DNA of 64,000 bases from a virus, in IMG/VR virus record IMGVR_UViG_3300046665_000589, positions 29,508 to 93,507 of that record; one strand, 5' to 3'. The first letter of the stretch is position 1. Every line of letters begins with the position of its first letter. Positions 2,508 through 64,000 of this stretch are shown one piece after another. The notes under the pieces are model-generated. The model searched no databases. It was not told the origin of the DNA and worked only from the letters and a program-made list of their open reading frames with translations. A program made the position numbers and the translations under genes.

Positions 2508-3362
2508 ATGTTGGGAGAATGGGTAGCGTTGGACGACTGGCAGCAGCTGCCAGACGTTTCCGGGATCTACGTGATCCGGCACCGGCAGAGCCAGAAGGCG
2601 TATGTGGGCCAGTCGAAAAATGTGCGTCAGCGCATCGCAAGTCACCGGTACGCGCGGTCCTGGCACTACTTCGGGCGCGCGCTGCGGCGCCACGGCCTCG
2701 CCGCGTTCGAGGTCTGCCTGCTGACCACAGGCGCACCGGAAGACCTGGGGCGCCTGGAGAAAGAAGCGATTGCCACGCTTGGCACGCTGGCGCCGGCCGG
2801 CTACAACCTGGCCGCTGGTGGCCTCGGGCCTACCGGCGTGACCTGGGCTTACGAACGCCGGCAGGCGCAGTCACTGGCGCGTACAGGCTTTCGGCACCGC
2901 CCTGACTCGATCGAGAAGATGCGCGAGGCGGCGCACAAAAACAATGGTTTCCGTGGGAAGAAGCACACGGCCGAGGCGAAAGCGAAAATCGGAGCAGCAA
3001 CCGTGCGTGTCCACACCGGGATGAAGCGGTCACCGGAGGTACGGGCAAACATCTCGGCGTCCTTGCAAGGTCGTGCGGCGCCTGTGCTGTCGCCGGAAGC
3101 CCGAGCGCGCATCGCAGAAGCCAACAGGAAGCCAAACCCGAAAAAGGCTCAGAGAGGTGAAAAGAACGGCATGCATGGGGTCAGGCTAGGTGAGCACCCG
3201 GCTGCAAAGCGGGTTGGCTTGTGGCTGCCCGAAGCCCTGACCCCGACCACCTTCGAAACAGCGACCGAAGCAGCTGCCTGGGCGGGCGTCAAAGTGTCTA
3301 CGCTATCCTGCTGGTGCTCCGGCAGACACAGGTCAACGCTGGGCGCCTGGGCCTACCTGTAA
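2508..3362 (+). CDS. Free-standing GIY-YIG homing endonuclease with NUMOD3-type repeats and a C-terminal NUMOD1/IENR1-like HTH
   Basis: SGIYVI...YVGQSKNVRQRIASH; LEKEAI; GYN; HRPDSIEKMR, HTAEAKAKI and RSPEVRANIS repeats; FETATEAAAWAGV. Confidence 0.9.
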   Translation: MLGEWVALDDWQQLPDVSGIYVIRHRQSQKAYVGQSKNVRQRIASHRYARSWHYFGRALRRHGLAAFEVCLLTTGAPEDLGRLEKEAIATLGTLAPAGYNLAAGGLGPTGVTWAYERRQAQSLARTGFRHRPDSIEKMREAAHKNNGFRGKKHTAEAKAKIGAATVRVHTGMKRSPEVRANISASLQGRAAPVLSPEARARIAEANRKPNPKKAQRGEKNGMHGVRLGEHPAAKRVGLWLPEALTPTTFETATEAAAWAGVKVSTLSCWCSGRHRSTLGAWAYL

Positions 3363-3365
3363 ATG

Positions 3366-3391
3366 AAAACGGCCCCTTTCGGGGCCGTTTT
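3366..3391. terminator. Bidirectional intrinsic terminator between the capsid and endonuclease genes
   Basis: AAAACGGCCCC-tttc-GGGGCCGTTTT. Confidence 0.9.
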
Positions 3392-3404
3392 AAGTTTGGT
3401 CAGA

Positions 3405-4637
3405 TCAGGAGATGACCAACACATCGAATGCCGTGAGGTCGGTATCACCGAATAACCTTAGGGCTTCCTCGCTCCAAGTCCAGATCATGCGACTCGAGCG
3501 GCGCAGCACGAACTCCTCGGTCGCCTTGTAATCGGCGCTGGTGTTGGTCACCAGCTTGATCGCCTGCGACTGGTCCAGGCCCCACACGGTGTTGGCCGGC
3601 ACCGGGCCACCGTTGGCGGCGTCGTCGACGATCAGCCACTTGACATCGTTGCCGAAGCCGATCGAGCCCTTGGCGGCGACCAGCTGCGGGTCGATGCGGG
3701 CCAGCGTCGGGTCGTAGTTGTTCGAACCCGGGCGGCCGGTGCGCGACTCGATCTTCAGGTAGGTGTCGAGGTCGCACATCACGTGGGTGATCTTGCGGCG
3801 GCGGCGGTTGCGCGCCAGCCACTTGACCCAGGCCTTGTGGGTGACCACGCCGCCGGTGGCAGCCGCGTCCAGCGAGTTGGTGGTCACCGCCGGCACCGCG
3901 CCGTTGTTCTGGTCCGTGTCGCCCAGGAACAGGTTGCTCAGGTAGGTGTTGACGCGCGCGTTGTGCTCGATGTCGATGTAACGCTTCATCGTCAGACCGA
4001 ACAGGTCGAGCGTGGTGCCCTTCATCGCTTCCTGGCTCATCTCGATGCCGATACCGTAGGCCGGGATGTTGAAGGCGCGCTCGGACGTGGTGATCGTCAG
4101 CATGTTCGGCAGCTCGCCCAGCTGGGTCACGCGGGCGGCCTTGGCGGCGTCGGCACCCTTGTTGGCGCCACCGGCCTTCTGGTAGCTCAGCACCGGCTGG
4201 CGGTAATAGTCGTCGGCCACCGGCACGGTGGTCTTGACCAGGTCACGGAAGCGCACGTCTTCGTCGCTGCGGCTGTCGTAGAACATGTCCTCGACCATCT
4301 CGATGACGACCGACGGGAACAGGATGCGCGACTGGTTGCCCAGCGGGTCACCACGCTCGCGGCTGTTCGAGGTGCCGCCAGCCTGGAAGCCGGCATTGCC
4401 TTCGAGGATGTCGTGGATCGACGCGGCGCGCAAGCCGAACGGGTTCTTGCCGACCAGCGACAGGCCCTCCGAGGCGGCGATCTGCTGGAACGCCGTACCC
4501 TTCTTCGGGTCGGCGTCCTTGTAGGTCATGTTGATCAGGTGCGCGACCTTGACGTTCTTGTCGACCGCTTCCTTGTAGAGAGTGTTTTCCAGCTTGACCT
4601 GCTGGACGTTCCCCTCGGCATTGATGTAAAAGCCCAT
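3405..4637 (-). CDS. Major capsid protein
   Basis: 410 aa after protease and decoration genes; strong RBS, biased codons, followed by a terminator; YGIGIEMSQEA segment is HK97-fold-like. Confidence 0.8.
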   Translation of the reverse strand: MGFYINAEGNVQQVKLENTLYKEAVDKNVKVAHLINMTYKDADPKKGTAFQQIAASEGLSLVGKNPFGLRAASIHDILEGNAGFQAGGTSNSRERGDPLGNQSRILFPSVVIEMVEDMFYDSRSDEDVRFRDLVKTTVPVADDYYRQPVLSYQKAGGANKGADAAKAARVTQLGELPNMLTITTSERAFNIPAYGIGIEMSQEAMKGTTLDLFGLTMKRYIDIEHNARVNTYLSNLFLGDTDQNNGAVPAVTTNSLDAAATGGVVTHKAWVKWLARNRRRRKITHVMCDLDTYLKIESRTGRPGSNNYDPTLARIDPQLVAAKGSIGFGNDVKWLIVDDAANGGPVPANTVWGLDQSQAIKLVTNTSADYKATEEFVLRRSSRMIWTWSEEALRLFGDTDLTAFDVLVIS

Positions 4638-5160: not shown

Positions 5161-6588
5161 TTAACGGTTGGCGGACGGCGCGGTTTTGAGGGCGAACTCG
5201 AAGCCGAACGGCACCGCGGCCTTGTTCGTGTCCTTGTCGTCGGCGTCGCTGGCGACCGACTGGCGGCCGACCGGGAACTTGGCCTTGAACTCGGTTTCGA
5301 CGCGGGCGTGCTCGGCGATCACGGCGGCGGCGTCCATGCCATCGACCGCGGCCTTGGTGCCGCCCAGCGGGATCAGCATCTTGGCGGTGGCGTCCTTGGC
5401 GATGGCCAGCAGGCCGTCGTGGTGCTGGGCCACCTTCTGCAGGTCGCCCACCTTGGCGGTGGCGGCGGCGGCATCGGCCTTGGCAGCGGTCAGCGCGGTG
5501 TTGGCGCTGGCCAGCTCGGCCTGGGCCGTGGTCAGCTGACCCTTGACGGTCGCCAGCTCGGCCTTGATGGTGGTCAGCTCGGCGGCTGCCTGGTTCTGGG
5601 AAGCGGCGGCGTCGCGCGCGGCGATCTCCTCGGCGCTCATCGCGGTGCCGTCTTCGTGCAGGCCGATGTCGGCCATCGACTTGCCGGCGCGCAGCAGGTT
5701 CAGTTGATCTTGAGTCAGAGTAATGGCCATAGCTTTACCTTTCGAATGGGAAGGAGTATTGCTGGAGTGTTTCTGCTTGTCAAGCAATTTTAGTGCCAGG
5801 TCGAAACTTTGCACTTTGTCCACAAGGCCGGCCTTGAGCGCCATCTGGCCGAGGAAGGTCTGGCCCTTGGTCACTTCGGCCAGCTGGTCGGCCGACAGGT
5901 TGGTACGGCCGGCCGCGACCTGCTTCTTGAACAGCTTGTGCACTTCGGCAAGCTGGGCCTGGGCGCGCTCCTTGGCGCCTTCGGTCAGCGGCTCGATGCT
6001 GTTGACCTCGGCCTTGTATTCGCCGGCGCGCAATACGGTGCGGGTCACGCCGTTCTGCTCGGCCTGCTTGCTGTTCTCGGCATGCACGCGCAGCACGCCG
6101 ATCGAGCCGACCACCGCGGTCGGGCCGGCGCTGATCGCGCCGCGAATGGCGCTGGCCATCCAGTAGCCGGCCGAGGCCATCAGCTCGGTGGTGTGCACGG
6201 CCGACGGCTTCAGGGCCGACAGCTGCGACAGCAGCGCGCTCATGTCGACCAGGCCGGCAACATCGCCGCCCGGCGTGTTGATGTGGTACAACATGGCTTT
6301 GGTGTCGGCGTGGGTCGCGGCCTCGATCGCGGCGGCCGCGATGTTGTCGTAGCCGAGCACGCCGAACAGGCGCATGAAGCCGGCATCACCCTGCACCACC
6401 GGACCGTTGATCTCGAGCACGGCGCTCGAGCCCTCGTGGCGCCAGAGCTTGGGCAGCTTGGCGATGGCCTCGTCCAGCCAGCCGGCGGTCATGCCGGGCT
6501 TGGCCAGCAGGTCGTCGACCTTGGCCTGGGCCTTGACGACCAGCTCGTACGACTCGTCCGAGCCGGCCCAGAAAAGTGGGACGCTCAT
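5161..6588 (-). CDS. S49-family head maturation protease fused to a C-terminal scaffold
   Basis: INTPGG, MASAGYW, VGSIGV and AGEYKA motifs; Ala-rich coiled-coil C-terminus. Confidence 0.85.
   Translation of the reverse strand: MSVPLFWAGSDESYELVVKAQAKVDDLLAKPGMTAGWLDEAIAKLPKLWRHEGSSAVLEINGPVVQGDAGFMRLFGVLGYDNIAAAAIEAATHADTKAMLYHINTPGGDVAGLVDMSALLSQLSALKPSAVHTTELMASAGYWMASAIRGAISAGPTAVVGSIGVLRVHAENSKQAEQNGVTRTVLRAGEYKAEVNSIEPLTEGAKERAQAQLAEVHKLFKKQVAAGRTNLSADQLAEVTKGQTFLGQMALKAGLVDKVQSFDLALKLLDKQKHSSNTPSHSKGKAMAITLTQDQLNLLRAGKSMADIGLHEDGTAMSAEEIAARDAAASQNQAAAELTTIKAELATVKGQLTTAQAELASANTALTAAKADAAAATAKVGDLQKVAQHHDGLLAIAKDATAKMLIPLGGTKAAVDGMDAAAVIAEHARVETEFKAKFPVGRQSVASDADDKDTNKAAVPFGFEFALKTAPSANR
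5755..5783 (-). promoter_or_regulatory. Internal sigma70 promoter for a nested scaffold (ATG 5730), decoration and capsid genes
   Basis: TTGACA-N17-AATACT in an AT-rich linker inside the protease gene; AAGG upstream of in-frame MAITLTQ. Confidence 0.55.
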
Positions 6589-38700: not shown

Positions 38701-40368
38701 CCGACCTGCTCAACGCCCTGGTCGACATGCAGGGCAGTCCGGCGTACGCGCTGCGCCGGCGCGTGCTGGAGCGCGCCGAGAGCGTGATCATCGGCCTGGA
38801 GCAGGAGAATCGCCAGCTCAAGGCGCTGCTCGAGAAGGAGAAGGCCGAACCGCTGAAGACGACCATCGACGGGTACGAGGTCGAGATGATGGACTGCGAC
38901 GGCTGTATGGGCTGTTTCGTGTCGAGCGAGCAGCACCACGCTGCGGCAGGCCTGGCCTCACTCGTGGCTGAAGGCGTGCTAACGCCGTACAACGGCGCCC
39001 ACGGTGCCGACCACCCAGTGGCGTCGGCCACCATCGACCGTATCGTGGAGTGGGCGACCGCCCACGGCTACTGAAAGGAGACCAAATGAAAACCTACAAT
39101 CGCCACCGCACCTCGGCCGAGGTGCTGGCCGCGTCCAGGGCGCAAAACATCCTGGTCGATACGGAGCGGTTCGACCAGGGCTGGGATCATCTGCTGCTGT
39201 TCATGCCGGGACCGAATGGCCTGCGCTGCCCGGTGCTGTACAACGTGTGCAACGGCCGCTTCTTCTGCGCCAGCGAAGGCTACCCGCAGTTCAGTTCTGA
39301 CCAGGCCCAGTACGACGGCCAGCCCTGGTTCGACGCACTGCTCGACTTCTTTTACACCAACGAGGACCTGCCAAAATGAAACCACCCTTTGCCTTACCTG
39401 TACGCATGGATGGCGGCATGCTTGTTGCCGCTGACTGCGAGCTGATCACCTCGATGCATGACGCCACCGCGGAAGAGTGTGCTTACATCGTCAAGGCGAT
39501 CAACGCTTACCCGCTGCTGGTCGCGCTGCGCGGCTGCTGCGAGCTGAATCTGGATGAAGGTGTCGAGCCGGCGACGATCGCACTGCTCGACCGGATCGAC
39601 GAGGTGATCTGATGAGCAAAACGATCTGGAAATTCCCGCTGTCCCTGGTCGACCAACAAGTGATCGAACTGCGCCAGGGCGCCCACGTACTGTCCGTCGG
39701 CCTCGACTCGCAGAGCGACCTGTGCCTGTGGGCGCATCTCGATCCGCACGAAGGACCCCTGACCGCCAAGGTGCGCATCGTCGGCACCGGCCGCCCGGCC
39801 GAAGGCCTGGAGCGCTACCGTTTCCTCGGCAGCGTCCTGCAGGGGTCGTTCGTCTGGCACGTGTTCGTGGAGGGCGTATGAGCCGCGAGCAATTCGAGCA
39901 GGTGCTCAAGCTGGTGCCGAGCGACGACCGCGGCGTCTACTGGTTCGGCCTGCAGCGCTTCACCAACGGCAAGGTCGTCACCACCCGCAAAGGTACGGTC
40001 AAGGTACCGCTCGAGCTGAATCTTGCCGACCTGACCGACCGACCGAACGCCGACCTGCGCGACGTGTTCATGCCGACGGCCGCCGACAACACCAAGCTGG
40101 TACCGCTGATCGTGTTCGTCGACCCTGAGAAGTTCCTTGCCACCCAGCCCAAGGAGCCTGAATGACCAAGCCCAAAATCTCCACCGTCGTCCGGGCCCAG
40201 GTCACGCTCGACATCTACGTTGGCACCTGGGGCGGCAACTCCAATTTCGTCGACCTGCACGAGACGGCGCAGCGCGAGGCGCTTCAGCAGCTGACGCACA
40301 AGCTTGGACACGGCTTGAAAGTGGTCGGCAAGCCGAAGATCGAGTTCGTCACCCACACCGAGAAATAG
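35745..40368 (+). other. Run of small hypothetical CDSs (35745-36239, 36236-36451, 36448-36705, 36702-36896, 36893-37228, 37225-37839 acidic, 37836-38054, 38051-38359 membrane, 38356-38676, 38673-39074, 39086-39379, 39376-39612, 39612-39881, 39878-40165, 40162-40368)
   Basis: Coupled starts/stops and RBS motifs. Confidence 0.65.
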
Positions 40369-40422
40369 CAAACTCTTGCGCTTTTGGCGTATAGTAGTTG
40401 CCTACCGCCAAGGAGAAATTTT

Positions 40423-40638
40423 ATGGAAAACATCGACTGGGAACGCCTTTCGGCGAGCGTACTGGCGCCTGAGGCGCTGGAACAGCTGGCCCGGGAGCTT
40501 GGCCTGCCGAAGATCGAGCCAGGACAGGATGTGCACCGGCTGGTCGCCGCCAAAATGTTCAGTGTGGCGTATGACGACGTCACGCCGGAGCAGCGGCGAG
40601 CCGCCAAGATCGCGAACTTCCGTAGCCTGTACCCATGA
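40423..40638 (+). CDS. 71-aa protein carrying an isolated family-A DNA polymerase fingers/motif B segment
   Basis: GQDVHRLVAAKMFSVAYDDVTPEQRRAAKIANFRSLY versus PolA-type G.D.H..TA...FG.....VT.EQRR.AK..NFG..YG; AAGGAG RBS. Confidence 0.7.
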   Translation: MENIDWERLSASVLAPEALEQLARELGLPKIEPGQDVHRLVAAKMFSVAYDDVTPEQRRAAKIANFRSLYP

Positions 40639-41105
40639 CCACCGCCAAGGAGAACCTTATGAACGTTCCGACTATCCGCATCGAGATCGAGCGGATGCGA
40701 CAGACCATGTCAACGATGCTCACCGAGCAGGCGGCGCTGGTCGATGCCGAACTGCAGGCCGCGCTCGACAAGTTCTGCCAGCCTGACAACATCAAGCGCG
40801 TCGTGCAGGAAGCGGCGCACAGTGCGCTCGAAGCTGCGGTCAAGGGTGAGATCAGCAGCTTTTTCAGCTACGGAGGTGCTGGCCGGAAGTCGGTCGCTGC
40901 TGCCGTGCAGGACGGCCTGGCCAAGATGGGCCTGCTCGAGAAGGACATCACCGACGAGGACCTGTGGCGGGCGCTTTCGTGGGCCCAGGATCTGGGCAGT
41001 CTCAAGCCCGATGCGCTGGCCGACGAAGATTACGAACTGGCCAGGCGCCTGTGCAGGCGCCTGGGCATGCCTGAGCCCTTCTGGGTCACGGAGCGGCAGC
41101 CATGA
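40635..41105 (+). CDS. Hypothetical protein
   Basis: Coupled ORF; alternative start at MNVPT with AAGGAG. Confidence 0.6.
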   Translation: MTTAKENLMNVPTIRIEIERMRQTMSTMLTEQAALVDAELQAALDKFCQPDNIKRVVQEAAHSALEAAVKGEISSFFSYGGAGRKSVAAAVQDGLAKMGLLEKDITDEDLWRALSWAQDLGSLKPDALADEDYELARRLCRRLGMPEPFWVTERQP

Positions 41106-41920
41106 TCGACACTAGCTACCCCAAGAAGATCGGCGATCTGATCGCCCGCGGCGCCCTGTTCGTCGAGAACCACAGCGGCGGCAAGGACAGCCAGGCGATG
41201 CACCTGAAGCTGCGCGAGATCGTGCCGAAGGAGCAGCGCGTGATCGTGCACGCCGACCTCGGGCGCGTCGAGTGGGCCGGCGCGCTGGCCCACATCGAGG
41301 CCACCACCGACGGCGAGCCGATCCACGTCTGCCGCGCGCGGCGCGATCTGCTGCAAGTGGTTGGTGAGCGCGGCATGTTTCCGTCGCCGGCGAATCGCTG
41401 GTGTACCTCGGACTTGAAGCGCGGCCCGATCGAGAAGGTGATCCGCCACCTGACCTACGCGCGCAAGGCCGCCGGCCACCCAGCCTGGCACCTGGTCGTG
41501 AACTGCGAAGGCCTGCGCGCCGAGGAGTCGACCAAGCGTAAGAAGATGAAGCCGTTTGTGTTCGATGAGGGCAACAGCAAGGCTGGGCGCGAGTGGTACC
41601 AGTGGCTGCCGGTGCACGAGTGGACCGAGGCCGAGGTGTACGCCACGATCAAGGCCGCCGGCCAGCAGCCGCACATCGTCTACCGCAGGGGCATGAAGCG
41701 CTTCTCGTGCGTGTTTTGCATCTACGCCGACAAGGATAGCCTGACCACCGCGGCGCGGCTGGTGCGCGACGAGCCGCACCTGGTCAACGATCCGAACGTT
41801 TATCGCGACTACTGCGACCACGAGCGCAGCACCGGCCAGGTCATGATCATGCCGTCCAAGCAGCACGGCCGACGCACGCTCGAAGAGATCACTGGCATCC
41901 CGGCCCGGGAGGTCGCATGA
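41102..41920 (+). CDS. PAPS reductase-family (PP-loop, Fe-S) protein
   Basis: HSGGKDS, RWCTSDLK, GLRAEES..R, RFSCVFCI. Confidence 0.85.
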   Translation: MIDTSYPKKIGDLIARGALFVENHSGGKDSQAMHLKLREIVPKEQRVIVHADLGRVEWAGALAHIEATTDGEPIHVCRARRDLLQVVGERGMFPSPANRWCTSDLKRGPIEKVIRHLTYARKAAGHPAWHLVVNCEGLRAEESTKRKKMKPFVFDEGNSKAGREWYQWLPVHEWTEAEVYATIKAAGQQPHIVYRRGMKRFSCVFCIYADKDSLTTAARLVRDEPHLVNDPNVYRDYCDHERSTGQVMIMPSKQHGRRTLEEITGIPAREVA

Positions 41921-42137: not shown

Positions 42138-43229
42138 ATGGCTTTGCCACGCCCGGACACCGGGCAAACCACTTTCCTCCAGCGCGTCGACGTCAACGGC
42201 CTCGACCGCTTCTGCTACCGGAGCTGCTACCCAAATCTGTACCCCGGCACACAGGTCGAGCTGCGCGCCCAGCCCTACAACCCGGGCGACTCGAACGCGA
42301 TCGAGGTGCGCTTCGACGGGGCGCAGATCGGATGGGTCCCGCGAGCACAGAACAAGGACCTCGCACGACGCCTGCGCAATGGTCAGAAGCTCGTGGCCAA
42401 GGCCCTCAACGTTTCGCTTGAAACCCTTGAGCTGAACGTGTATGTGGAGCGCGGGGCGGAGCCGGCGACGGTGCAGGCACCGCAGGGGTTGCGGGTGCAC
42501 CTGCAGGAAGGTGAGTCAGGAGGGCTTGCGCGGATCCGGACTTACCCTCCAGCCACGCAGTTCCCGCTGTCGACCACCAGCACTCGTACCTCGGTCTCCG
42601 TGCTGGACCCGGAGACGCGCGAGCAGCAGCTCGCCTGGTTCCGCAAGTCCGACGTCGACGGCCAGCACCTCCCTGTCTGGGAACGCACCGTAGTCGTACG
42701 CACTTCGACCGGCCACTACGTGCTGGTCCCGAAGACCGAGACGTTCTACGCCGCACCTCTCGCAATACCTCGTGACGTACAGGACAGCCTCGCTGCCCGC
42801 ATCAACACCAATTCCATCATCACCACCACCAAGGAAACCACCATGAAAAACCTGACCGCCAACCTGATCGCCACCAACCAGTCCGCCGCCACCCAGGCCG
42901 GCTACCTCGAAGCAGGCCGCATCGCCAACAACCAGATCGTGCGCCTGTCGTCCAAGGCGCTGCCGATGATGGTGCGCGGCTACGCCGACACCCCGGTCGG
43001 CAAGCTCGTGCTGGCCAACGTCGCTCAGCTGGCCGCCAGCCACCTGCGTGCCGGCGACGCCACGCTGGCCCGCCTGACCAATGCGATGACGGTCGCCGCC
43101 TACCAGGAACTGATCCAGACCTTCGACATCGAAGGCTGGCTGAACCAGGTGCTCGAGATGCCGGAGATCAAGCGCGCCGTGTCCAAGCTGGGCGAGGCGC
43201 CGGCCGAGCGCCCAGTCCACAAAGAATAA
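42138..43229 (+). CDS. HIRAN-domain protein in frame with a separately initiated C-terminal protein (ATG 42843)
   Basis: VELRAQPYNPGDSNAIEVRFDGAQIGWVPR; internal AAGGAAACCACCATG. Confidence 0.7.
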   Translation: MALPRPDTGQTTFLQRVDVNGLDRFCYRSCYPNLYPGTQVELRAQPYNPGDSNAIEVRFDGAQIGWVPRAQNKDLARRLRNGQKLVAKALNVSLETLELNVYVERGAEPATVQAPQGLRVHLQEGESGGLARIRTYPPATQFPLSTTSTRTSVSVLDPETREQQLAWFRKSDVDGQHLPVWERTVVVRTSTGHYVLVPKTETFYAAPLAIPRDVQDSLAARINTNSIITTTKETTMKNLTANLIATNQSAATQAGYLEAGRIANNQIVRLSSKALPMMVRGYADTPVGKLVLANVAQLAASHLRAGDATLARLTNAMTVAAYQELIQTFDIEGWLNQVLEMPEIKRAVSKLGEAPAERPVHKE

Positions 43230-61591: not shown

Positions 61592-61970
61592 TGCATTTTG
61601 ACGGCTTTGTCTTCTGTATCACGATGGCGCTCTTCCAATTCATCCGGGACTGCCGCCTGTACTGGAAGAGCCGCCAGACGACCGGGCCAAAACGGCTTGG
61701 GTATCTCTGGGTAGGTATGCAGTGCACTCACCTGACGCACATCTGGGCGGCCGCCGCCGTCATTATCGGAGCACTCAAATGATGATGAAACTAATACTGC
61801 TGGGCGTCTTCGTGCTCCTGGCGCTGATTGTTGCCAGCGTGAACCTGCGCGCGGCAGGACGAGCTCAAGAAGAACAGACGCCTTGGACACGCTATTTCCT
61901 GCTTACGACGAACATCTGGGCCGCAGCCGCCCTCGTGATCGGTGCGCAGATATTGGGGAGCATTCAATGA
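61591..61970 (+). other. Two small paralogous membrane CDSs (61591-61782, 61779-61970)
   Basis: Both contain IWAAAA.(I/V)IGA near the C-terminus. Confidence 0.55.
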
Positions 61971-64000
61971 AAAAACGACTCGCCTACGACATGTCCAGCT
62001 TCATGTGGACCATGCTCTCGTGGGGCAAGGACAAAGAGAACGGCTACACCGTCCAGCACGAAGGCAAGGACGTCTACGTCAACAGTGCGCTGTACGGCTT
62101 CGACAACACGATGGGCCGGATGCTGGACGTGCTGACCTGGGCCAAGCTCAACCCGATTAACTGCATCCTGGTGTTCGAGGGCGCCAACTCCAAGTCGCGC
62201 CGCCTGCTGATCGACAACAGCTACAAGGGCGGCGCCGGCTCGAGCCGGCCGCCCGAGGCCTACGAGGAATTCGTCAAGCTGCGCGAGATGCTCAAGCAGG
62301 CCTGGAAGGACCTCGGCGCCCAGACCATGTGGCAGGACGCGGCCGAGGGCGACGACGTGCTGGCCTGGCTGGCGCACAACACCGAGGATGACCTGATCGT
62401 CGCCACCTTCGACAACGACCTGACGGTACTGAACCTGGACCCGAACGCCTACGGCGCCAAGGTCACGACCTGGATCAACGAGATGGTCGGGTTCAACAAG
62501 TACGGCGTGTTCGACTACGACCTGGTCACCACCTACAAGGCGCTGGTGGGCGACTCGTCTGACAAGATCAAGGGTTGCCCGGGATTCGGCCCGTCGGCCT
62601 GGGAGCAGCTGCGCTCCCAGTACGGTGACGACGGTGTGCGCGAGATCCACAACATGCTGCTGGAGTCGAACCTGAACAAGTTGGCCGAGTACATCGGCGG
62701 CCCGCAGGACAAGCTGCTGCAGAAGATCCTCGACAACGCGCCGCAGGTGCAGTGTTGCTTCGATCTTGCCCGGGTGCGCCCCGAGTGGGTCAGCACGATG
62801 CGCATGCCGATCTGCTGGGAGCCGGGCATGGTGCGCCAGTTGGCGCCAAGCGACCGCGACCCGCGCCTGAAGAAGTGGTACGGGAAGACGCGCCTGATCA
62901 CGGCTGAGAACTTCGACGAGGCGGTGGCCTGGGCCATGCCGCACATCCTGGCCTCGGAAGAAATCGCGCTCGACATCGAGACCTCGACCCAGGACGAGTC
63001 GGACGAATGGCTGGCCAACATGAGCAAGACGGGCGACTCGGAAGACGCGGGCGTGGACGTGTTCGGCTCCTATCTGGTCGGCCTGGGCCTGACCTTCGGC
63101 GCCAACAACCAGTTCACGTTCTACATCTCGGTCAAGCACGCCGATACCAACAACGTTGACAGCGAGAAGGTGCGCCAGTTCATCGCCGCGATCCCGCAGG
63201 ACAGGCAGCTGGTCATCCAGAACGTGTCGTTCGAGCTGGCCGTGCTGTTCAACGAATGGGGCGCGCGCCAGCTGGACAACGGCTACCACGGCTTCCTGCC
63301 CAACGTGCGCGACACCGCGCTGGAGGCGTCCTACGTCGACGAGAACAGCCGGCGCGGCCTGAAGGAGCGCTCGCACAGCATCCTCGGCTACCGCCAGCAG
63401 ACCTTCGACGAGACCGTGCGCCTGACCGCCCACCCGTCCGAGCTGTTCCCGGGCGGGCGCCTGCTGTCGGAAGATTACGAAACGCGCCTGGTCGGCACCG
63501 GCCGCTTCGAGCCGCTCACCGAGGAAGAGATCGCCGCCGGCCTGCAGCCGGTCGAGATCATGAAGACCGAGACGGTGATGGAGGAGACCGGCGAGTTCGA
63601 GACGGTCGAGGAGCCTGTGCTCGACTCGCGCCTCATCCCACTGCTTGACGGGGAGGGGCAGCCGATGTACCGCGAGGTGCAGAAGCCGGTGCTGCGCCCG
63701 AAGGTGAAGACCCAGACCCGCCGCTACAAGATGCACGAGCTGCCGGCCTGGCACGTGCTCGGCTACGGCGCCGACGACCCGATCTGCACCATCGCGCTGC
63801 ACAACTACTACAAGCTGCACATGCAGCTCGAGCACCACTATACGGTGTACGAGGAGGTCGAACTCAACGCCGCCTACCAGCACGCCAAGAACTTCATCGA
63901 CGGCTGCGACATCTCGCTGGAGAAGATGAACGAGCTGTCGGCCGAGGACGACGTCACCTACGACCAGGCCGGGGGCGTGCTGCGCGGGTACCTGATCGAC
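61967..64000 (+). CDS. Family A DNA polymerase with 5'-3' and 3'-5' exonuclease domains (partial)
   Basis: EGDD, DND and LVGDSSDKIKGCPGFG (FEN/H3TH); LDIETS Exo I, QNVSFE Exo II, YGADD Exo III; open to window end. Confidence 0.85.
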   Translation, partial: MKKRLAYDMSSFMWTMLSWGKDKENGYTVQHEGKDVYVNSALYGFDNTMGRMLDVLTWAKLNPINCILVFEGANSKSRRLLIDNSYKGGAGSSRPPEAYEEFVKLREMLKQAWKDLGAQTMWQDAAEGDDVLAWLAHNTEDDLIVATFDNDLTVLNLDPNAYGAKVTTWINEMVGFNKYGVFDYDLVTTYKALVGDSSDKIKGCPGFGPSAWEQLRSQYGDDGVREIHNMLLESNLNKLAEYIGGPQDKLLQKILDNAPQVQCCFDLARVRPEWVSTMRMPICWEPGMVRQLAPSDRDPRLKKWYGKTRLITAENFDEAVAWAMPHILASEEIALDIETSTQDESDEWLANMSKTGDSEDAGVDVFGSYLVGLGLTFGANNQFTFYISVKHADTNNVDSEKVRQFIAAIPQDRQLVIQNVSFELAVLFNEWGARQLDNGYHGFLPNVRDTALEASYVDENSRRGLKERSHSILGYRQQTFDETVRLTAHPSELFPGGRLLSEDYETRLVGTGRFEPLTEEEIAAGLQPVEIMKTETVMEETGEFETVEEPVLDSRLIPLLDGEGQPMYREVQKPVLRPKVKTQTRRYKMHELPAWHVLGYGADDPICTIALHNYYKLHMQLEHHYTVYEEVELNAAYQHAKNFIDGCDISLEKMNELSAEDDVTYDQAGGVLRGYLID

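Follow-up and report, generated by a model that had tools for sequence, protein, structure and literature searches.

A free-standing phage gene for the fingers of family A DNA polymerases, carried as a single-gene cassette

Introduction

Why would a phage that already encodes a family A DNA polymerase carry a second, very short gene that specifies little more than the fingertip of such an enzyme? The locus that raises this question lies in a 64,000-nucleotide stretch of viral DNA, hereafter the window, which corresponds to positions 29508-93507 of the 93,507-bp record IMGVR_UViG_3300046665_000589. An earlier note on this DNA, made from the letters alone, singled out a 71-residue open reading frame (ORF) whose C-terminal part recalls motif B (the O-helix) of DNA polymerase I (Pol I), and proposed that its product is a decoy for a defence factor that recognises polymerases, a nucleotide-binding sponge or a captured fragment. 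Here, we report a computational analysis of this ORF, of its product, the mini-protein, and of the relatives and genomic surroundings that bear on what it may do.

Results

The mini-protein ORF (P0002) occupies positions 40423-40638 on the plus strand, from an ATG start to a TGA stop, and encodes 71 residues. The strong ribosome-binding site that had been claimed for it is present as a Shine-Dalgarno sequence, AAGGAG, at 40411-40416, 6 bases 5' of the ATG. GC content by codon position (0.71/0.42/0.76, in a genome of 64% GC) is coding-like in the frame of the ORF only, and the third-position value (GC3) falls at the low end of the range in neighbouring genes. A sibling phage genome (93,546 bp) holds a copy identical at 68/71 residues, and the changes (R59Q, I63V, and S68N) all fall at positions that vary in the wider family described below. 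Together with the codon-position values, the ORF is annotated as coding from the Pfam match and the structural model given next. The segment is an intact accessory gene with its own ribosome site, and the resemblance of its product to polymerases goes far beyond chance.

The Pfam family DNA_pol_A (PF00476) matches residues 31-70 of the mini-protein at profile positions 180-219 of 381 (E, 2e-8), with a score of 34.1 bits that lies just under the curated cutoff of 34.3. Searches with tblastn (phages) and phmmer (1.84 billion representative proteins) returned polymerases and short homologues, with best E values of 1e-8 to 1e-11. PHROG matches are weak and comprise polymerase families together with phrog_38792 (62 residues, unknown function), phrog_30466 (122 residues), and phrog_6982 (269 residues). 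The earlier note had restricted the resemblance to the C-terminal ~38 residues of the ORF. The match to the PolA segment stands but the restriction does not, since in local alignments to nine PolA proteins, residues 1-70 are collinear with the stretch of the full-length bacterial-type enzyme that begins at motif A and closes with the O-helix. Over a 35-37-residue O-helix core, the mini-protein is 57-66% identical to PolA proteins of bacterial length.

Three elements of the enzyme can be traced along the plus strand. The first is motif A, which reads DYSQIELRVLAH in full-length PolA and IDWERLSASVLA in the mini-protein; IDWERLSAS aligns to the motif A sequence DYSQIELR, with the Asp retained and the Glu and the Arg both replaced by Ser. 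By this collinear alignment, the degenerate remnant spans residues 5-12 (DWERLSAS; 40435-40458). The second is the D-V-H element with helix N (residues 36-46; 40528-40560), delimited by the family alignment and a model helix at 37-45. The third is motif B or the O-helix, VTPEQRRAAKIANFRSLY (residues 53-70; 40579-40632), which Pfam, the PolA alignments, and a model helix at 55-69 all support and which carries R58, K62, F66, and Y70. The mini-protein keeps the equivalents of Klenow D705 (D5), D732 (D36), H734 (H38), R754 (R58), K758 (K62), F762 (F66), and Y766 (Y70); the Arg and the Lys that contact deoxynucleoside triphosphates (dNTPs) are therefore retained, as had been noticed, and H38, F66, and Y70 with them. 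The equivalents of E710, R712, G763, and G767 are replaced, with R67 in the place of G763 and P71 in that of G767.

An AlphaFold2 model built on a 43-sequence family alignment consists of four helices (6-11, 16-26, 37-45, and 55-69), with a mean predicted local distance difference test score (pLDDT) of 89 and a predicted template modelling score (pTM) of 0.71. Its top Foldseek matches in the PDB are all Klenow, Taq, Bst, or mycobacterial Pol I chains, at E values that are weak because the query is short, and its N/O hairpin superposes on the Pol I fingers at 0.6-0.9 Å over 33-37 columns with ~50% identity, the fit to Klenow being 0.6-0.8 Å. The profile search and the structural model, both of which the earlier note had suggested as checks, hence point to polymerase fingers. 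With the corresponding region of family A polymerases (Klenow ~705-767; Taq, Bst; PF00476 ~150-220), the mini-protein shares the collinearity from motif A to motif B, an N/O hairpin that fits to within 1 Å, and the same H/R/K/F/Y set. Its four helices represent the part of a bacterial-type family A polymerase that begins at motif A, here degenerate, and takes in helices N and O.

What the excerpt leaves out is equally clear. The ORF ends one residue past the O-helix Tyr, and its 71-residue product, as compared with a polymerase domain of ~400 residues, contains neither motif C and the remaining palm nor the thumb nor either exonuclease. The statement that the mini-protein has no palm holds except for the degenerate motif A and its Asp. 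Set against a functional family A polymerase, it presents the dNTP-binding residues of motif B (RRxAKxxNFGxxYG) with both glycines replaced. Because motif C, the thumb, and the exonuclease domains are absent, the mini-protein cannot polymerise DNA.

Such stand-alone fingertips recur in other phages. The phmmer search returned 91 matches at an E value of ≤1e-3, most of them 53-146 residues long, Met-initiated, and stopping shortly past the O-helix, and a profile search of 5.8 billion clusters returned 109 short proteins at ≤1e-5. Many of the latter lie on contigs of 43-288 kb, so that these short homologues are not contig-end fragments; some matches of 195-253 residues, on contigs of 1-2 kb, are ordinary polymerase fragments. 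In a curated set of 43 members, the median length is 68 residues, the tail past the Y766 equivalent is 0-18 residues long (median, 7), and the head preceding D-x-H varies from 5 to 105 residues. The nearest relative of the mini-protein is a 67-residue metagenomic protein (P0003; 67% identity). A family hidden Markov model (HMM) whose seed alignment includes the mini-protein itself scores it at 87.5 bits (E, 9e-26). It has its own start and stop, ends 1 residue past Y70, and carries the family-invariant D36, H38, V53, T54, Q57, R58, K62, F66, and Y70, with R67 in the Gly place. The search for similar stand-alone phage ORFs that the earlier note had called for has accordingly yielded dozens of conserved short homologues, and the mini-protein belongs to a widespread and unnamed phage family.

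Named members include the 60-residue ORF5 of Pectobacterium phage PPWS2 (BBD74637, annotated "DNA polymerase") and its 60-residue counterpart in Pectobacterium phage CX5 (QFP93595), both among small early genes near the left genome end, the 66-residue ORF9 of Ralstonia jumbo phage RP13 (BCG50027), beside exonuclease III and ligase genes, and the 132-residue NVP1215A_017 (gene 017) of Vibrio phage 1.215.A, which has a Cys-rich tail. These proteins and PHROGs 38792 and 30466 have the same architecture, C-terminal boundary, and invariant residues as the mini-protein and are likewise single genes without a conserved neighbour. The mini-protein differs from the named members in sharing only 38-58% identity over the alignable part and in having a longer N-terminal segment than the 55-60-residue forms. 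Structure matches in BFVD extend the list to small uncharacterised proteins from phages of Acinetobacter, Maribacter, and Pseudomonas. The RP13 record (L010, LC554890; 171 kb) contains two identically scoring copies of the mini-gene, at 3299-3433 and 167941-168075, near both of its ends, and these probably lie within a long terminal repeat.

All six carriers checked (five named phages and the present one) also encode a full-length PolA. Across eight genomic contexts, no neighbour gene within 3.5 kb is shared other than the mini-protein itself, which rules out a two-gene system with a fixed partner and means that any partner or ligand is not encoded next door.

The phiKMV-group gp12 proteins (LKD16 gp12; phrog_6982, automatically named "DNA polymerase") show the same motif B segment together with a motif A-like CDYAELETRVAASL. 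They differ in length (~270-290 residues), in the B-then-A order of the motifs, in their fixed position ahead of the primase gene, and in an additional C-terminal region that has no family or solved relative. In LKD16 (L009, NC_009935; 3501-4325), the motif B match of gp12 begins, in frame, 18 codons ahead of the annotated ATG, and the annotated start probably truncates the protein. Other rearranged forms were seen: P0055 (334 residues) and P0009 (98 residues) each contain two tandem motif B modules, with P0055 ending in a motif A-like NYGQLEARVLAS, and P0049 has motif B followed by a motif A-like segment, again in swapped order. A metagenomic protein (P0089) fits all three motifs, A as DYAEAERRLLA, B, and an HDE-like C as TVIHDEFIFDD, into 168 residues; it could be either a PolA core that has been drastically cut down or an intermediate on the way to the mini-proteins.

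Narrower searches were less productive. Viral contigs queried with P0002 or a two-sequence alignment yielded no relatives, a metagenome scan gave one full polymerase and one additional mini-protein, and a search with a 10-sequence family alignment returned mostly full polymerases. Full polymerases also dominated a tblastn search with P0052, which missed the Acinetobacter phage members found through BFVD, and an Atlas search produced weak leads only (scores, 0.83-0.84). A literature search that took in a 2023 reclassification of PolA subfamilies and a 2024 study of polymerase swapping found no paper describing the family or its function; the paper on the PE3 gp1-gp12 deletion deals with different early genes. 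The family is known in databases only as automatically annotated "DNA polymerase" or hypothetical proteins and as three PHROGs.

Conservation across the 43 members is uneven. D732, A738, V749, T750, and K758 equivalents are present in all 43, Q753, R754, and an aromatic residue at 762 in 42, H734 in 40, and Y766 in 36; in the mini-protein, the invariant columns include D36 and A42, and H38 stands in a nearly invariant one. In members with the motif A segment, the counts for D, E, and R in its columns are 19, 25, and 13. G763, G767, I760, and L764, which serve only to pack against absent parts, vary freely, as do the positions that face the O1/O2 helices in the enzyme; G763 is Gly in 8/43 members versus 9/9 full-length PolA proteins (Fisher P, 7e-6). 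On the O-helix, conservation marks two adjacent faces. Residues 57/61/65/69 pack on helix N, and residues 58/62/66/70 form the face with which the polymerase contacts the triphosphate and stacks on the base. Since the shortest members, with helices N and O only, retain the H, R, K, and aromatic residues, these are not kept merely to pair with motif A. The ratio of nonsynonymous to synonymous substitution rates (dN/dS) for CX5 and PPWS2, the only close pair, is ~0.38 on 9 substitutions, too weak to prove selection.

Is the mini-protein a copy of the phage's own polymerase? CheckV rates the virus record 100% complete, and the 156-bp repeat common to its ends means that the genome behind the assembly is circular or circularly permuted. 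On the plus strand of the window, the real polA extends from 61883 to 64000 (Pfam 5_3_exonuc_N and 5_3_exonuc) and on across the record ends through genome positions 1-1905, which makes a joined frame of 1289 codons once the 156-bp terminal repeat is removed. The mini-protein was said to lie 21 kb from the real polymerase; this is true of the distance to the start of polA, its 5'-3' exonuclease part, but the polymerase domain itself is beyond the window end, with DNA_pol_A matches at genome positions 841-1794. Unlike that gene, the mini-protein is encoded alone, as a cassette. The motif B region of the phage's own enzyme reads DQHTLTASAIAM, followed by ~25 inserted residues, between helix N and the O-helix, and then IRGLGKKLNFTAEYG. 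Smith-Waterman alignment of the mini-protein to this polymerase misses motif B altogether (score 34, spurious), and the mini-family HMM does not match it at an E value of ≤0.01. These failures and the divergent motif B rule out a recent duplicate, so the mini-protein, which had been earmarked for comparison with the phage's own polA, is not derived from it. The same enzyme keeps the R, K, F, and Y of motif B, which excludes the idea that the mini-protein is a fingers subunit complementing a fingerless polymerase. Residues 380-440 of the real polA product also show a weak Mrr_cat-like match (E, 0.0012).

How, then, did the gene come to this locus? A 14-bp direct repeat, ACCGCCAAGGAGAA, on the plus strand brackets it. 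The left copy (40404-40417) holds the Shine-Dalgarno sequence of the mini-ORF and the right copy (40641-40654) is the ribosome site of the downstream gene. The repeat occurs exactly twice in the window, still twice when 2 mismatches are allowed (0.27 expected by chance), and its copies delimit a 237-bp insertion/deletion unit. Two related viral contigs (L011 and L012), whose equivalents of the 68-residue upstream gene and of a PAPS-reductase-like gene are 90% and 85% identical to those in the window, lack the mini-ORF. There, the stop of the upstream gene is followed by the same intergenic sequence, with one copy of the junction, and by the homologue of the downstream gene. Since these close relatives lack exactly the ORF and the repeat brackets it, the mini-ORF is a 237-bp single-gene cassette that was either gained here or lost from the two relatives compared, and it is an optional, horizontally mobile gene.

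The flanks belong to the ancestral arrangement, all on the plus strand. The left neighbour (40162-40368) encodes 68 residues, is 90% identical at the protein level in the two relatives, and has no Pfam or PHROG match. The right neighbour (40659-41105) encodes 148 residues, has a 48% identical homologue that adjoins the upstream gene in those contigs, and found no family match in domain and family scans. Alignment to the ORF-less relatives shows that the intergenic stretch at 40369-40403 is common to them and includes TATAGT (40390-40395; TAAAGT in the relatives). The earlier note saw a possible promoter in this hexamer and had its position right, but a sigma-70 scan calls no promoter there and the region is kept where the ORF is missing, which together rule out a sigma-70 promoter carried in by the cassette; if TATAGT is a promoter at all, it belongs to the ancestral downstream gene.

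A polA gene decaying in place was the outcome that could have undone the reading of the mini-ORF as a gene. A six-frame PF00476 search found only 117 bases of motif B at the locus, and tblastn of nine full-length PolA proteins against 37-44 kb matched 40393-40632 only, with no flanking polA pieces. The flanking genes are conserved non-polA genes, and a pseudogene is ruled out. Megablast of 38-43 kb against phages gave no match. The proposal of a captured fragment survives in its first half: capture agrees with a precise cassette absent in close relatives and with a likeness to bacterial-type Pol I rather than to the phage's own polymerase, but a mere fragment does not agree with a widespread, conserved family.

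The spot shows other signs of exchange. Between the 148-residue downstream gene and its L012 counterpart (5301-5998), only the N-terminal ~94 residues are common (48% identity), with a different C-terminal half, and in the relatives an additional 78-residue ORF precedes the PAPS-reductase-like gene; both features indicate further mosaicism. In the window, that PAPS-reductase-like gene (41102-41920) also matches BrxP, SspD, and DndC models, of the DNA phosphorothioation or BREX type, and a gene at 42138-43229 encodes a HIRAN plus DUF7566 protein whose HIRAN part matches the PADLOC candidate PDC-M03B. The two may form a phage module for DNA modification or fork processing. Further on, a 197-residue ORF at 43564-44157 matches phrog_4786, "cysteine dioxygenase" (E, 4e-35), an unusual auxiliary gene to find beside the PAPS-reductase-like gene.

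Discussion

What could a polymerase fingertip do on its own? The reading that we favour, though tentatively and with somewhat less than even confidence, is that the mini-protein is a noncatalytic binder that uses the conserved, exposed face of its O-helix. The residues that are kept are the triphosphate-gripping set, and the module travels alone; on these grounds, the face would bind, but not turn over, a nucleoside triphosphate or a similar nucleotide rich in phosphate, and the protein would probably do so as an oligomer or while bound to a partner. Its role would be an optional one in host takeover or counter-defence, rather than in core replication, for example by buffering or sequestering a nucleotide or a nucleotide-derived signal. 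A synthetic 50-residue peptide of Escherichia coli Pol I reportedly binds dNTP substrates and DNA, going by the title of the 1989 study by Mullen, Shenbagamurthi, and Mildvan (J Biol Chem 264:19637; PMID 2684960). The peptide, also the subject of 1993 work by Mullen, Vaughn, and Mildvan, reportedly spans helices N to O and would correspond to about residues 32-71 of the mini-protein; it is a laboratory peptide that implies no biological role, not the product of a natural gene.

Several points weigh against the binder reading. Bulk sponging of dNTPs at millimolar concentrations is implausible for such a protein, and the ligand would need to be a rarer nucleotide or signal. This member lacks equivalents of the E710 carboxylate and of R712, which weakens a polymerase-type metal-nucleotide site. 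The conserved face would equally be kept if it were recognised by a protein partner, and part of the apparent invariance is ascertainment, since the family was gathered by motif B similarity. No sequence relation to nucleotide sponges of the Tad1, Tad2, and Acb2 type was seen. We place low confidence in the broader proposal that mobile single-gene fingertip modules, present in many phage lineages, constitute a new class of counter-defence or takeover proteins that soak up a nucleotide signal or blind a polymerase-recognising host factor.

The second of these activities leads to the decoy of the earlier note. Here, the mini-protein would display the most immutable surface of Pol I and occupy a host sensor, inhibitor, or modifying toxin without activating it. 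Responses of defence systems to phage family A polymerases have been documented for Borvo and, through its escape mutants, for AbiQ, and a decoy fits this precedent as it fits the presence/absence distribution of a single accessory gene, typical of counter-defence genes, the early-region position in PPWS2 and CX5, the family A polymerases of all six carriers checked, and the conservation of exposed active-site residues. However, the mini-protein resembles a generic bacterial-type Pol I and not the polymerase of its carrier, whose O-helix region has a 25-residue insertion and goes undetected by the family HMM, and the same mismatch applies to the Autographiviridae carriers, whose polymerases are of the T7 type. 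Escape mutations from Borvo map to the proofreading cleft instead of the fingers, a fragment that resembles the trigger ought to switch a sensor on and not off, and PADLOC gives no match for the mini-protein. We regard a decoy as doubtful, if still worth entertaining.

A dominant-negative action is improbable in our estimation. In this case, the mini-protein would interfere with host Pol I or with a competitor's polymerase by competing, as a free fingertip, for template/primer DNA or for something that host Pol I requires, and would thereby damp host repair or Okazaki fragment processing during takeover. Consistent with this are the bacterial type of the motif, the early-gene position in Corkvirinae phages, the place of the fused, motif-permuted relative LKD16 gp12 (phrog_6982) at the head of the replication module in phiKMV-like phages, the exonuclease III and ligase genes adjoining the RP13 member, and the DNA binding ascribed to the 1989 peptide in its title. 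Yet the thumb and the palm, the source of most DNA contacts, are absent, Pol I fingers are not known to interact with any cellular factor, and nothing in the data requires a host target. A functionless hitch-hiker, that is, a polA fragment produced by illegitimate recombination and persisting briefly, would suit the dispensability of the ORF in close relatives and the weak dN/dS value, but is very improbable. Unrelated phage lineages hold dozens of Met-initiated, intact homologues that are 40-67% identical and stop at the same C-terminal boundary, some residues are nearly invariant while others drift, and the ORF has a strong ribosome site of its own, is free of frameshifts and stops, and has no polA debris nearby.

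MicroProteins of plants and animals, which are small single-domain paralogues of larger proteins acting by competition, offer a formal parallel to the mini-protein as short, separately encoded excerpts of a multidomain protein. The parallel is limited, since microProteins keep a dimerisation domain and poison the complexes of their parents, whereas polymerase fingers are not a known interaction domain and the mini-protein is not a paralogue of the phage's own polymerase.

The findings have a consequence for annotation, in that dozens of such genes are misnamed "DNA polymerase" (e.g., PPWS2 ORF5 and, in RefSeq, LKD16 gp12), which inflates polymerase counts in phage genomes and viromes. Cultured, genetically tractable members exist in Pectobacterium phages PPWS2 and CX5 and in Ralstonia phage RP13. 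If the mini-proteins are functional binders, the most conserved active-site element of an essential enzyme would have been excised and mobilised as a free-standing tool that has spread across podo-, sipho-, myo-, and jumbo-phages. The family would then represent a new origin for small phage effector proteins and a natural nucleotide-holding scaffold of 55-70 residues.

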